This document shows, in pieces, positions 68 through 9,402 of a stretch of 18,173 nt of DNA (position 1 is its first letter; every line of letters begins with the position of its first letter). Both the position numbers and the translations under genes were made by a program. The stretch is from Candidatus Woesebacteria bacterium. Lineage in GTDB: Bacteria; Patescibacteriota; Microgenomatia; UBA1400; PJMF01. The stretch is taken from contig DAOQVB010000014.1 of the NCBI GenBank assembly GCA_035341315.1, forward strand, positions 1 through 18,173. The letters run 5' to 3'. Below the pieces are notes generated by a model. That model did not search any database and was not told where the DNA came from. It was given only the letters and a program-made list of their open reading frames with translations.

Positions 68-802
68 ATGAAAGGCAGTATGTCAGACGCGGCTGTTACA
101 TTTAAAAATGTTGATCTATATAAGGATGGCTGGAATCTTCTCAAAGAAACTTGGAAGCCACTGCTCTCAATTGGAGCTATTTGGCTGATTATTGAAGCAT
201 TAGCTCAATCCTCACTTCAGTATGTTGAACAACAGGAAAATTCTTTGCTGTCTTTGTCGGTAAGTTTGGCTAGTTTGGCATTAAGCGTGATCTTACAATC
301 AGGATTCATTGCCGCATCATTTCGGATTGTTCGTGAGAAAACTGCTGAAATCAGTGATTTATTTGCACAAAAACCTGTTTGGATGAACTATTTTCTCGCC
401 TTAATTGCCTATCAATTACTAGTGGCGCTAGGCACAATCTTACTTATAGTGCCAGGGATATACTGGGCTCTTAAATACAGTCAGGTTTTGTATTTGATAG
501 TTGATAAAAAAGTAGGTGTGTCTGAGGCCTTCAATATGTCTGGAAGAATGACTCAAGGGATGCTGTTGAAATTACTAGGATTTGGGTTAATTTCCATTCC
601 GCTAAATCTAATCGGGTTATTAGCCTTGGGCGTGGGTGTGTTTGTCACCTTAGGAATTACTGCTTTAGCCTATGTGTTGTTGTATGAAAAGCTGTTACAA
701 AGAATCGGAACAACCCAAGTGGCCGCGGTGGTAAAAGAGTCACCTCCGGCAAACCCTACAACGCCAGTTGATCCACCAACTTCTGCTTCCTCAAAAACGT
801 AG
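68..802 (+). CDS. Integral membrane protein, DUF975-like, with a Pro/Thr-rich C-terminal tail
   Basis: 244-aa ORF with several predicted hydrophobic helices. The N-terminal pattern (K..W..LK..W.PLL.I..IWLI) resembles DUF975 membrane proteins. The C-terminus is PANPTTPVDPPTSASS. Family assignment is from memory of the family pattern and was not searched. Confidence 0.5.
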   Translation: MKGSMSDAAVTFKNVDLYKDGWNLLKETWKPLLSIGAIWLIIEALAQSSLQYVEQQENSLLSLSVSLASLALSVILQSGFIAASFRIVREKTAEISDLFAQKPVWMNYFLALIAYQLLVALGTILLIVPGIYWALKYSQVLYLIVDKKVGVSEAFNMSGRMTQGMLLKLLGFGLISIPLNLIGLLALGVGVFVTLGITALAYVLLYEKLLQRIGTTQVAAVVKESPPANPTTPVDPPTSASSKT

Positions 803-5755: not shown

Positions 5756-6376
5756 TTAAAAACCGTCTGGCACCGCCCTGACAATCAATCGATCTTTGTC
5801 TAAGAAACCAGCGCAAGTATAGATTGTCAGTTGCTCCCTGTTGGTGGGGAATAGGTAGCCATTTTCATCTGGTGGCACAGTAGTTACGTCAAAGACTTGA
5901 TAATTTCTCGTTGTGCCATCGAGCGTAGTCACCTCAATAAGATCATTGATTTTCAACAATTTAAGTGAGCCAAAAATATTTGATGTATTGTGGCCATAGA
6001 CGATGGCATTACCAGCTTCTCCAGGGTACGCTGATTGCTCTACATGGAAAGCTGATTGACGATCGAGTGTCCAACCAGTCGCAGATTCAGTACCTGGTTT
6101 AATCGAGATAGTTTTGCCATTGAGCTCAATGGCGACGGGGCGCTGCCCTAAGTCTCGCTGAGCTGATACCGGTTGGATCTCCGCCACTGACTGAAAATTT
6201 GGCAGCAGCGCCCGCAAGCGCCAGACTTGATGTAAGATAGAAACGCAGAGCAGGATGCTACCAAGGAGTACTAAAACAGCCGGCAGATACTGCCGGCTGT
6301 TCTTTTTGACACTCTTTTTTTTCTTCGAATGTTTGGTTTTTTTACTTTTGTTTGGCATGCATGAGAGCTCCGGCAC
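5756..6376 (-). CDS. Sortase family transpeptidase, membrane-anchored, class E/F-like
   Basis: N-terminal polybasic segment followed by a TM helix (LPAVLVLLGSILLCVSIL). Catalytic His motif (NAIVYGHN). Catalytic Cys motif TLxTC (LTIYTCAGF). Conserved Arg (RLIVRAV). It overlaps the 3' end of the upstream substrate ORF. Confidence 0.82.
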   Translation of the reverse strand: MPELSCMPNKSKKTKHSKKKKSVKKNSRQYLPAVLVLLGSILLCVSILHQVWRLRALLPNFQSVAEIQPVSAQRDLGQRPVAIELNGKTISIKPGTESATGWTLDRQSAFHVEQSAYPGEAGNAIVYGHNTSNIFGSLKLLKINDLIEVTTLDGTTRNYQVFDVTTVPPDENGYLFPTNREQLTIYTCAGFLDKDRLIVRAVPDGF

Positions 6377-6809
6377 TGACCATCAGTGTACCAAGAACTC
6401 CAGTTAATTGCATAAGGGTATCTGCAGCAACACCAGTTTTGGCGTAGCTAGTGGCACCGAGTACTTGACCTTTGCTGGTTGTAGCACCTAAGACAGTACC
6501 GCCAGTAGCTGGACAGTCGGGGAATTCCACGGTTTTTTCAATTTTGTAAAAACCGTCTGCATATCCAGTTAGTTTGTTTTCACCATCTCTTGGGTAGATG
6601 ACGATGGCCCAGCCGTCACTGTTGCTAGTCGCGGTTTTCTTGTTACCGTTGTAGTCAAATTCTGCAGTGACGTTTTCCATAGGTTTGCCATCATTGGTAA
6701 AACGCATTTCCGCTTTGACTTCATCATTTTCACAGCTAACTTGGTATTCCAACGCCGCCACTCTTCCTGGTCCAGGAGTGGGGGGTGATGGTTGGAGTTG
6801 GTCGCTCAC
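6342..6809 (-). CDS. C-terminal portion of the sortase-substrate surface protein (out of frame with the N-terminal portion)
   Basis: Ends with ...TSYAKTG-VAADTLMQLTGVLGTLMVSAGALM-HAKQK. That is a sorting-motif-like YAKTG, a hydrophobic stretch and a basic tail, the classic cell-wall sorting signal layout. The frame is open upstream back to 6827 and starts on GTG. It joins the 6736..7371 ORF if one base is gained or lost in the G6 run at 6780..6785. Confidence 0.6.
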   Translation of the reverse strand: MSDQLQPSPPTPGPGRVAALEYQVSCENDEVKAEMRFTNDGKPMENVTAEFDYNGNKKTATSNSDGWAIVIYPRDGENKLTGYADGFYKIEKTVEFPDCPATGGTVLGATTSKGQVLGATSYAKTGVAADTLMQLTGVLGTLMVSAGALMHAKQK

Positions 6810-7371
6810 CCTCGGTTGGGGTTGGTTCTACCGAAGGGCTAGGTTCAACAGATGGGCTTGGATCTACCGAAGGACTAGGCTCAACAGATGGGCTTGGATC
6901 TACCGAAGGGCTAGGTTCAACAGATGGGCTTGGTTCTACCGAAGGGCTAGGTTCTCCCGTTGGTTTAATGGATAACTTAAAAGAAGCGTGCGAGATATTA
7001 GCGCAAATATTTTCAGGAGCGTCGCCGTGTCTAGCTACCACCTTTCCATCTTCACGCCAATTAGCTCCGACACAATTCTTTCCATCAACTTGATACCAAC
7101 TAGTTGAGGTAAACTTTTTCAGATAACCATTTTTTGAATTGTCACTCCCGCCCTTAATACAAACCTCAACTACTATTTTACCCTCAGGTACTGTAAAAAT
7201 GACCTTCCCAGCTTCATTAGGACTATAATGTTCTGTCCAATCTCCTGTATGTGGACACACTTCTTGAGCATTTTCAGAACTAGCCCGCACAATCTCATTG
7301 TTTGATTGAAAAACCAATCCGACAAGTGTACCTGCGAACAGAATACCGAGGGTCAAAAATAGTTTTTTCAT
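6736..7371 (-). CDS. N-terminal portion of the secreted surface protein: signal peptide, Cys-containing domain and (EPSPSV/DPSPSV)n repeat linker
   Basis: Signal peptide MKKLFLTLGILFAGTLVGLVFQS. RBS AAAGGTG upstream. Tandem 6-aa Pro/Ser repeats are encoded by 36-bp DNA repeats. The ORF ends in an implausible tail (HSWTRKSGGVGIPS) straight after the poly-G run, consistent with a frameshift. Confidence 0.65.
   Translation of the reverse strand: MKKLFLTLGILFAGTLVGLVFQSNNEIVRASSENAQEVCPHTGDWTEHYSPNEAGKVIFTVPEGKIVVEVCIKGGSDNSKNGYLKKFTSTSWYQVDGKNCVGANWREDGKVVARHGDAPENICANISHASFKLSIKPTGEPSPSVEPSPSVEPSPSVDPSPSVEPSPSVDPSPSVEPSPSVEPTPTEGERPTPTITPHSWTRKSGGVGIPS
6828..6959. repeat. Tandem 36-bp repeat, about 3.7 copies, encoding the (SPSVEPSPSVDP)n linker
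   Basis: Direct reading of the sequence. Units at 6828-6863, 6864-6899 and 6900-6935, plus a partial unit at 6936-6959. Only 2-3 mismatches between units. Confidence 0.9.
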
Positions 7372-7596
7372 TTAGCACCTTTGTTTTATTTGTACAAAAA
7401 ACGTACTACTGTAAAAAAGTAGCAAATTATAACATACTGCATCAGTATGGATCAACAATTAAACTTAAAGAACCGCTAGTTGTGAAAATTCTATATATAA
7501 CGATATAATCGGCTACTGTTGTTAAGAGGAATGAACCCCATTTAACAGCGCGCACATTATTATCCCCTGTAGCTCAATGGCAGAGCATTCGGCTGT

Positions 7597-8145
7597 AGAC
7601 ACACTAAATAAAGTCTGGTATTTTTCGAAAAATGCCTGAGAAGAGAAAGTACGCCGACCGAAGAGAATACATGATTCAAGCTGTCAGTAAGCGTAGATTA
7701 AAAATCAAGCAAATGGCAATTGAATATAAGGGTGGTCGATGTACTGTATGTGGCTATGATCGCGAAGTTAGTGCCTTGGAGTTCCATCATCTAGATGACA
7801 CAAAAAAAGATTTTGGACTTTCACAAAGAGGACTAACCCGATCGTGGAAGCGTACTCAAGTTGAGTTGGATAAGTGTATTTTGGTTTGCGCCAATTGTCA
7901 CAGAGAAATCCACTCAGGAAAACTGCAGCTTTCGTTGGAAACAACGAAATGAACATCGGGTGAATTGCGGGAAGCCTAAATCTAAATGATATGGTAATCC
8001 GCAGCCAAGCCTCGTTTCGATGAGGAAGGTTCAGAGACTAGGTGAGTACACCACTTCGTAAAAACGAAGAAGCGCCCGACACCGTAATCCTAACAAGGAT
8101 TGGTGATGAGATAGTCCACGCCACGCAGAAATGCATGAATCAGTG
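7597..8145 (+). mobile_element. Group I self-splicing intron (about 549 nt) carrying a homing endonuclease ORF
   Basis: Conserved group I core elements are visible. P: AATTGCGGGAAG (7962-7973). Q: AATCCGCAGCCAAGC. R: GTTCAGAGACTAG. S: GAGATAGTCCACG. The 5' exon ends in U and the intron ends in G (the omega-G) just before the 3' exon. The ORF sits between the 5' splice site and the P element. Confidence 0.75.
7632..7952 (+). CDS. HNH homing endonuclease encoded inside the group I intron
   Basis: 106-aa ORF with C..C ... EFHHLDD ... N ... CANCHREIH, the HNH nuclease signature. It lies entirely within the intron. Confidence 0.78.
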   Translation: MPEKRKYADRREYMIQAVSKRRLKIKQMAIEYKGGRCTVCGYDREVSALEFHHLDDTKKDFGLSQRGLTRSWKRTQVELDKCILVCANCHREIHSGKLQLSLETTK

Positions 8146-8306
8146 TAACCGAAGGGTTGTAGGTTCGAATCCTACCGGGGGAGCCATCAGTGTGGGTTGC
8201 TAAAAAATACTAGTTCTATAGATCGTATTCACTGCAAATAACTTAATAACCTACGCGGATTGATTGATTCTGCAAATACCCATGATAACCAATATAATAG
8301 AAAGGC

Positions 8307-8609: not shown

Positions 8610-9402
8610 TCTGGATGCAATAGAGCAACAAGTTGACTTTGCAATTGCAACCAAGTCAAATATCAAAAAGCGTATTGTTACTAGACTAGCAATGACCGTG
8701 CTTGTTGGAGCACTGTTTCTCTCTGCGTGCTCCACTGTGGAGACACAGGGAAATCCGCCACCACAGTACGCATCTGCGACTGAGTTTGCTCGAACGCCAA
8801 TCGCTTTGTCAGAAGAATCTTCGCACACATATTCACCCGATCGAGTTATTTTTGAGCCCTATAAGGAACTAGCACCATATGCTATCAATCTTCCAGCACA
8901 GCTGAAAGAAGACTTGGTAAAAGTCATTTGGCATGCGTTGCAGAACAACGCAGCAACAAATATTGACCCTGACGATTTATTTCATTGTCATGTTTTAATG
9001 ACTCAGGAGAAATATAAGCAAAACTATGATATTGATGTATATGAAGGCACATTATCCGGGTGGCTAAACGGTTATGCTCAAGATTATTCGGGATTACTGT
9101 GCCATTCTCAAGAATACGCCAATAAAGGAGCGGACCCACAGAAACGTAATATTGTAGTCATGAAGGGCCAAGAACCTTTTATTCCTTTGGCTACGGCAGG
9201 AGAAGGAATATCCATTCCTGAATTGGATGACATGATGGGGGGTAGTAGAATCGGCGTACTTCAATTACATTTTTATATTACCCCAGACGGTAAAATTAAG
9301 CTTCCAGATGGAAGACGAATTGATGTTGTAGTTGAGTCCCCTGGCGTATACACGTCTTTGCGTACGAAAATGAGCGTTGACTTACCTAGTGTGACAGAAT
9401 AG
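8560..9402 (+). CDS. Hypothetical lipoprotein
   Basis: Contains KKRIVTRLAMTVLVGALFLSACST, a signal peptide with lipobox L-S-A-C. The true start is probably the internal Met near 8692, and the 8560 start would give a 36-aa N-extension. No recognisable domain. Confidence 0.6.
   Translation: MEMISEEIFQPPESSPNLDAIEQQVDFAIATKSNIKKRIVTRLAMTVLVGALFLSACSTVETQGNPPPQYASATEFARTPIALSEESSHTYSPDRVIFEPYKELAPYAINLPAQLKEDLVKVIWHALQNNAATNIDPDDLFHCHVLMTQEKYKQNYDIDVYEGTLSGWLNGYAQDYSGLLCHSQEYANKGADPQKRNIVVMKGQEPFIPLATAGEGISIPELDDMMGGSRIGVLQLHFYITPDGKIKLPDGRRIDVVVESPGVYTSLRTKMSVDLPSVTE

Follow-up and report, generated by a model that had tools for sequence, protein, structure and literature searches.

A split sortase-substrate gene in Candidatus Woesebacteria: most likely an ordinary frameshift allele in an uncharacterised family

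The split gene and its sortase

We describe here a gene for a putative sortase substrate that is split between two reading frames, and the sortase gene that overlaps its 3' end, in a bacterium of the candidate phyla radiation (CPR), Candidatus Woesebacteria. The DNA analysed, which we refer to as 'the window', is a stretch of 18,173 nucleotides (nt) comprising positions 1 to 18,173 of contig DAOQVB010000014.1 (assembly GCA_035341315.1), and makes up a complete contig of a metagenome-assembled genome from wastewater. Both genes lie on the minus strand. The upstream reading frame of the substrate gene, 7371..6736, specifies 211 amino acids (aa): a signal peptide, an N-terminal domain ('N-domain') that we term type A, a repeat linker, and a tail of 14 residues that is out of frame. 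The product begins MKKLFLTLGILFAGTLVGLVFQ, continues through PSPSVE/D repeats, and ends ...PTPTITPHSWTRKSGGVGIPS at a TAG stop codon, 6738..6736. The type A domain is an orphan and contains cysteine, and a Pfam search with the 211-aa product returned no matches. Two distant full-length relatives, P0008 and P0009, have the motif CPxTGDW and the overall architecture in common with it. The downstream frame, open across 6809..6342, reads ...PTPGPGRVAALEYQ..., followed by a domain of ~85 residues, the sequence GQVLGATS-YAKTG, a hydrophobic stretch, and a terminal HAKQK. An exact-sequence look-up identifies this 155-aa open reading frame (ORF) as HNS65164.1. Its segment 6779..6342 (stop codon 6344..6342) comprises a C-terminal domain ('C-domain') in the form of a seven-strand beta-sandwich, and a cell-wall sorting signal.

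The two frames are offset by one base, and both traverse a run of six cytosines (C6; G6 on the plus strand) at 6785..6780, which carries the extra base and is the site of the frameshift. The span 7371..6342 is 1030 nt long, or 3n+1. The frames fuse if the run has one base fewer (C5) or two more (C8); with C7 there is no fusion. A preliminary description of this DNA, made from its letters alone, had reported two ORFs, one (7371..6736) with the signal peptide and repeats and the other with the C-domain and sorting signal, and a one-nucleotide offset through GGGGGG at 6780-6785. Translation confirms this anatomy. It had added that a one-base change in the run would fuse the frames, which is correct for the removal of a base and incorrect for the addition of one. 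The single fused gene that it envisaged, for an anchored protein, holds up as well, although the C5 product is 342 aa long rather than ~345, with the junction ...PTPTITPTPGPGRV...; the junction proposed earlier, ITP followed by PTPGPG, belongs to the C8 version. Two tryptic peptides would distinguish the possible products: PTPTITPTPGPGR, from the junction of the fused protein, and PTPTITPHSWTR, from the truncated one.

Just upstream of the run on the coding strand, as was also noted in that description, lies a tandem array of 36-bp units (6817..6959, minus strand) that encodes the (PSPSVE/D)n linker. Tandem Repeats Finder resolves it as 3.8 copies of period 36 (93% matches) or 7.6 copies of period 18, and its 3' end is 31 nt from the tract. 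One contig (L014; ENA ERZ27257442) has an array shorter by 72 nt, or two 36-bp units, and thus an upstream ORF of 187 aa instead of 211; the tract there is still C6. This shortening may be real copy-number variation, or it may be a collapse of the repeats by the assembler. A promoter-like site, TTGATC, an 18-nt spacer, and TG-TATAAT, occurs upstream of the gene at 7455..7426 (minus strand). It was found by a consensus scan, and is a pattern match only, with 10 of 12 consensus positions and an extended -10 element; the region is 73-84% conserved in orthologous loci.

The sortase gene, 6358..5756, encodes a protein of 200 aa that matches PF04203 (E 8.3e-21; 74.5 bits against a cut-off of 26.6). 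The expected residues are present in its translation: His (in YGH), Cys (in LTIYTC, which is TLxTC-like), and Arg (in LIVRA). It falls below every class cut-off of NCBIfam, the highest-scoring class being GN, with 38.5 bits against a cut-off of 158. The ATG at 6358 produces a 17-nt overlap with the end of the substrate gene. The same overlap is found in all orthologous loci, where the gene order substrate-sortase-(289 aa)-DnaG is also kept, and the suggestion that substrate and sortase form one operon with overlapping ends is borne out. GGAG precedes the sortase ATG by 9 nt and, to judge from this reading of the letters, the sortase can probably initiate translation independently of the substrate frame.

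Within the sortase gene, at codons 20-29 (6275..6301), we also observed a perfect, GC-rich hairpin of 11-12 bp, ACAGCCGGCAG-TAT-CTGCCGGCTGT. On either strand a U/T run comes after it: UUUU in the mRNA sense, CTTTTT in the plus strand. Among all orthologues, to as low as ~77% overall identity, conservation of the stem is 100% even at third codon positions, and the loop is either TAT or TCT. The hairpin may be an attenuator internal to the operon that sets the ratio of substrate to sortase, or a bidirectional terminator.

A family of surface proteins

The close homologues of the substrate, P0001-P0007, are encoded by single ORFs of 327-434 aa. They share its C-domain and sorting signal, with 73-93% identity in that part, and differ in their N-domains. 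Because these homologues are single ORFs with the same C-domain, signal, gene order and 17-nt overlap, the fused reading is the true gene. At E<=0.001, an exhaustive HMMER search with the C-domain yielded representatives of 171 clusters. Most of the best 150 have the C-domain at the C-terminus of proteins of 250-480 aa, and the tails of these 150 take the form ...GQVLGA[ST]T[YLMF]A.TG, ~22 hydrophobic residues, and an end rich in K and R. The corresponding pentapeptide in the window, YAKTG (6446..6432, minus strand), is LAxTG-like ([YLMF]A.TG in the family), and its Y309, A310, T312 and G313 are invariant in a family alignment (A1). It is followed by 24 mostly hydrophobic residues and by HAKQK, to make up a tripartite signal that is non-canonical when set against LPXTG. 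The features by which sortase substrates are recognized, a signal peptide and a tripartite C-terminal signal, are therefore both present in the window allele, but in different frames.

The NCBIfam anchor models do not match the window substrate, and no Pfam family matches its domains. AlphaFold2 predicts only the C-domain of the fused protein with confidence, as a seven-strand beta-sandwich at residues ~200-285 (pLDDT 64-87). A Foldseek search against the PDB gave only generic Ig-like beta-sandwich matches, and no functional assignment. The architecture of the family is as follows: a signal peptide, a highly variable N-domain, a linker rich in Pro, Thr and Ser, a conserved beta-sandwich domain, and an LAxTG-like signal. 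Members are probably sortase-processed proteins anchored to the cell wall, and would form a previously unannotated family of CPR surface proteins. Some relatives consist of the C-domain alone, and we asked whether these are further split genes. One of them, P0082, is a fragment at the end of a contig with its upstream frame open, and short family matches cannot, therefore, be counted as frameshifts.

Recurrence of the frameshift

Homopolymers are classic sites of indel errors, the sequence comes from a metagenome-assembled genome (MAG), and the gene is otherwise perfect. One explanation of the split, raised in the preliminary description, is therefore an error of sequencing or assembly in the homopolymer, in a genome whose true tract is C5 and whose gene is intact. 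The occurrence of the locus elsewhere contradicts this. The sortase sequence recurs exactly on 15 contigs, and the 211-aa ORF does so on 10. In the distinct contigs the tract is C6 in 9 of 9 and C5 in 0 of 9. Four of these contigs are from JGI (3300009687, 3300025784, 3300025859 and 3300010356), two from ENA (ERZ27257434 and ERZ27257442), and three from Logan (SRR5007133, SRR4236648 and SRR4236649), the last three being US wastewater samples (PMC7300365). Two Woesebacteria MAGs among the third-party annotation (TPA) records of NCBI have this split ORF in their annotation. The C6 contigs are 99.7-100% identical to each other over 2 kb, and represent one near-clonal strain, seen across several assemblers and samples.

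These assemblies, from JGI, ENA/MEGAHIT (k141) and Logan, are independent of one another, and draw on several runs and samples. In the same contigs a second G6 run, 9237..9242, serves as a control and lies within an intact ORF of 280 aa, and long neighbouring genes are unbroken: those for DnaG (592 aa), a 516-aa protein, and an ABC-F protein (540 aa). A run of 6 nt is, moreover, not an error hot spot in short-read data. The dominant population does carry the extra C in its DNA, and this is not an assembly artefact. An error at the level of the consensus is very unlikely, because the identical C6 occurs in contigs from different pipelines and from several wastewater metagenomes, and we give the explanation by error hardly any weight.

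Further scans covered two collections of contigs. Neither the tract, at any length, nor a conserved 40-mer just 3' of it has a match in a collection of metagenome contigs; that collection evidently does not include the contigs described here, and so the result is uninformative about C5. A scan of the contigs of species-representative genomes found matches only at the known P0001 and P0006 loci.

Intact and mosaic alleles

We aligned the window with four intact orthologues (P0001, P0002, P0004 and P0043, at loci L001, L002, L004 and L020), which are in-frame genes for proteins of 327-419 aa. The DNA alignment (A2) contains exactly one gap column, and it falls within the C run. At this site the orthologues read ATTA-CTTTAACTCC, ATTA-CCCTAACTCC, ATTA-CCCTCACTCC and ATTA-CTCCTACACC, and none of the four has a homopolymer at the position of the tract (ACT-TTA, ACC-CTA, ACC-CTC and ACT-CCT). 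Elsewhere in the Thr/Pro linkers of the intact alleles C runs reach C5 at most (L004 and L020), with none of 5 or more in L001 and L002; only the C6 of the window is longer. The preliminary description had itself named fixed, in-frame orthologues that lack the homopolymer as evidence against its idea of phase variation, and such are the orthologues that we find.

The closest comparison is with P0043, an intact 340-aa allele found in other samples (L020 and L021). Its C-domain is 100% identical to that of the window at the amino acid level, and its N-domain is of another type. L020 and the window are 99.0% identical over 5172 nt, beginning at 6779, the first base past the tract. Their C-domains differ at only four nucleotides, all synonymous, a divergence too small for selection to be measured. 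We considered whether these four differences reflect selection after the frameshift, and dropped the idea: they are polymorphisms shared among alleles, and hence no measure of selection since the event.

On the other side of the tract the affinities change. The promoter and signal peptide of the window resemble a third type of allele, that of L004/L001 (~80-84%), and the final 45 nt of the linker resemble L001 and L002. At least four unrelated types of N-domain are joined to the same C-domain. A search with the type A domain alone found no relatives, nor the domain itself; the word index lacked the 211-aa product, and so the search is uninformative about in-frame ('ON') variants. It suggests only that type A is rare. 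The substrate gene is thus a mosaic, in which the mature N-domain is a cassette exchanged between strains, and the tract is at the 3' edge of the segment exchanged. A simple crossover in ACTCCTGGA would be in frame, and the extra C is therefore a separate slip, or a repair error.

A second split allele occurs at L025 (~690..735) and L026 (ENA ERZ15185866 and ERZ28615168). Here a 1-nt shift in the Pro/Thr linker, of opposite sign to that in the window (-1 nt), falls between ...GKCEKPSVSP and STPTPTPTDSE..., around TCTCCCCAGT. An N-domain of type C and a Cys-rich module thereby fall in a different frame from the C-domain (P0046, 140 aa). Fusion needs +1 nt, possibly by a change from C4 to C5 in TCTCCCCAGT, and this C4 run is the only homopolymer in the interval in which the frame switches. 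L025 and L026 are identical, one of the contigs has a k-mer coverage of ~1, and the assemblies may share reads; this is a weaker case than that of the window.

Phase variation and recoding

The preliminary description proposed a phase-variable tract. In the form considered here, slipped-strand mispairing at C6 would toggle the gene between a full-length, anchored protein (C5 or C8) and a truncated, secreted one (C6), with the gene OFF in all samples. We consider this improbable. The homopolymer does lie in the coding region of a surface-protein gene, a change of 1 nt does restore the frame, and both halves are undamaged. Many CPR genomes lack mismatch repair, and their rates of slippage would be higher as a result; the N-domain is hypervariable, as expected under diversifying pressure; and in L025/L026, too, a shift of 1 nt in the Pro/Thr linker splits the gene, with C4 the sole homopolymer in the interval concerned. 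Yet the consensus of every distinct contig is C6 and of none C5 (9/9 and 0/9), and the fused 342-aa sequence is absent from a collection of 15 billion proteins. None of the four intact orthologues has a homopolymer in this place, so that the tract is no conserved device. Known contingency loci typically contain ~7-8 or more G/C, and at 6 nt this tract is shorter. Nor are G/C runs of 6 or more enriched, as the window contains 2 where a first-order model predicts ~2.3. The claim of a phase-variable tract is thus not supported.

A broader form of the same idea is that C runs in the linkers of this CPR family serve in general as contingency or recoding sites in cells from which mismatch repair may be absent, where 1-nt slips would switch a hypervariable protein back and forth between an anchored form and a shed form, with the window (+1 nt) and L025/L026 (-1 nt) both representing OFF states. 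We hold this to be doubtful at best. Should reads turn out to be heterogeneous at the tract, this one would become a first candidate for a contingency locus among CPR bacteria; the evidence at present points the other way.

Alternatively, the full-length protein might still be made from C6, by recoding. In this case either +1 slippage of tRNA-Pro at CCC_C, or transcriptional slippage, would yield a long, anchored form alongside the short, secreted one. On ACC-CCC-C, tRNA-Pro can pair again without mismatch after a +1 shift, which is the shift needed, the downstream frame is intact, and CCC-C is a known site of spontaneous +1 slippage in E. coli and Salmonella. Against these points, the site is not conserved, and each orthologue is one ORF, in frame. 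The codon in the A site is CAC, which is no stop, and not slow either, as it makes up 31 of 85 His codons. GAGGGTGAG, ~24 nt upstream, is the one Shine-Dalgarno-like sequence, and lies beyond stimulatory distance. RNA structure 3' of the tract, which we considered as a stimulator, was rejected (z -0.13). Ordinary genes of the window contain six more CCC_C sites in frame, and six residues are few for slippage by RNA polymerase. Programmed or not, recoding is an unlikely source of the full-length protein; its only plausible form here is spontaneous slippage at CCC_C, at a low level.

A truncation allele

The locus is most likely an ordinary frameshift allele within an uncharacterised family of CPR sortase substrates: the anatomy given in the preliminary description is correct, and both of the causes that it proposed are disfavoured. 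More specifically, we favour, with reasonable though not high confidence, a young +1-nt frameshift that is fixed in the population, and that either yields a secreted, unanchored protein of 211 aa or has made the gene a pseudogene. One extra C has entered the linker at the codon pair ACC-CCC, converting C5 to C6. Ribosomes would now read 14 out-of-frame codons and terminate at the TAG, 6738..6736. The product would be a secreted protein of 211 aa, made up of the N-domain and linker without the stalk domain and sorting signal, and its attachment to the wall by the co-encoded sortase would be impossible. The final 145 codons would be silent, save for any spontaneous +1 slippage at CCC-C. The homopolymer itself would stem from the codons used for Thr and Pro in the linker, and would not be a dedicated switch.

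The lesion is a single indel relative to intact close relatives, reproduced in 9 contigs, as in a young pseudogene. It is probably young because both halves are otherwise intact, and because the C-domain is identical in amino acid sequence to that of an intact allele whose flanks are 99% identical. Comparable alleles are known. In Listeria monocytogenes, premature stop codons and homopolymer frameshifts in inlA give rise to truncated, secreted versions of an LPXTG protein, and alleles of this kind can dominate natural populations.

Several points weigh against a simple, fixed lesion. Neither half carries a second disabling mutation. The broken allele is dominant in several samples; strong selection against it is thus not at work, and there could be a reason for its maintenance. 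The split in L025/L026, a second 1-nt shift in a linker, hints at recurrent events. Tract length was scored on assembly consensus, a level at which minority lengths within populations are invisible. Finally, the contigs are near-clonal and may stem from related studies; the assemblies are independent, the populations not necessarily so.

The split should be treated, accordingly, neither as an artefact to be repaired in annotation nor as evidence of a phase switch. The window carries an allele of a sortase substrate whose truncation is real and extends across the population. A by-product of its study is the description of an unannotated CPR family, defined by a variable N-domain, a Pro/Thr linker, a beta-sandwich, the signal GQVLGA[ST]T-[YLMF]A.TG, and a dedicated, overlapping sortase. 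The exchange of N-domains between near-identical strains bears on how episymbiotic CPR cells vary their surface.

Neighbouring elements

Divergent from the substrate gene is a gene for tRNA-Asn(GUU), 7563..8186 on the plus strand, that is interrupted at position 35/36 of the anticodon loop by a group I intron of 549 nt (RF00028, 89.4 bits, E 4.6e-22). Exon 1 is 7563..7596, the intron is 7597..8145, and exon 2 is 8146..8186. The intron contains an ORF for an HNH endonuclease, 7632..7952 (PF01844, E 6.6e-5). ARAGORN missed the tRNA in the window, and found it once the exons had been joined in silico. The intron recurs in L004 and L005, where it lacks the HNH insert of ~320 nt; in L020, L001 and L002 the tRNA-Asn gene is uninterrupted. 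Group I introns that interrupt tRNA genes have already been described in Patescibacteria, where copies that bear an endonuclease are said to be uncommon (PMC13011429).

In strains with other alleles, a gene for a large serine recombinase (486 aa) adjoins the 3' end of the tRNA-Asn gene (L020 1..4525, L021 1..7758 and L004 878..2338), accompanied in L020 and L021 by genes for an Mrr-type nuclease and a helix-turn-helix protein. The region looks like an element integrated at the tRNA gene. In the window, from 8187 onward, different genes occupy the position of the recombinase. The closest intact orthologues of the locus, L022 and L023, are from GTDB representatives (CAZFRD01 and CAYNWG01) whose records are titled 'uncultured Pseudomonadales bacterium'. 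This label is probably wrong, because the proteins of the window are labelled Candidatus Woesebacteria in NCBI, and because the locus has features typical of CPR, among them a tRNA gene with a group I intron.

Comparison with known systems

The locus invites comparison with four known systems. It resembles the poly-G/C contingency loci of Neisseria, Campylobacter and Helicobacter in having a G/C homopolymer within a surface-protein gene, one length of which is out of frame. It differs in that the tract is only 6 nt long, is unconserved in orthologues, exhibits no length polymorphism in what we observed, and is not over-represented. Likewise, the CCC_C of the window has a heptamer-like context, and a +1 slip restores the frame, as in known cases of +1 frameshifting such as prfB (CUU-UGA-C) and tRNA-Pro at CCC-C. 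Here, however, the site is unconserved and lacks both a well-spaced Shine-Dalgarno sequence and a hungry or stop codon in the A site, and intact orthologues exist.

The substrate and its sortase also share features with sortase-dependent cell-wall sorting, in particular with the class E sortases of Actinobacteria, whose substrates carry LAxTG signals (PMC5148588). In the window, too, the substrate has an N-terminal signal peptide, and a pentapeptide with Ala at position 2 that ends in TG and is followed by a hydrophobic segment and a basic tail. The sortase gene is adjacent, overlaps it translationally, and encodes His, Cys and Arg. The differences are several. Position 1 of the motif is Y (Y/L/M/F in the family), and a conserved GQVLGA[ST]T precedes it. 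The sortase passes no class cut-off of NCBIfam, and the host is a CPR bacterium. The domains of the substrate belong to no Pfam family, and a frameshift separates the substrate from its signal.

This last feature recalls truncation of the inlA type. The organism, the protein family and the environment are different, and the window allele is known from metagenomes only; the likeness is that a point indel, or a stop, lies upstream of the sorting signal and leaves a secreted fragment where there had been an anchored protein.

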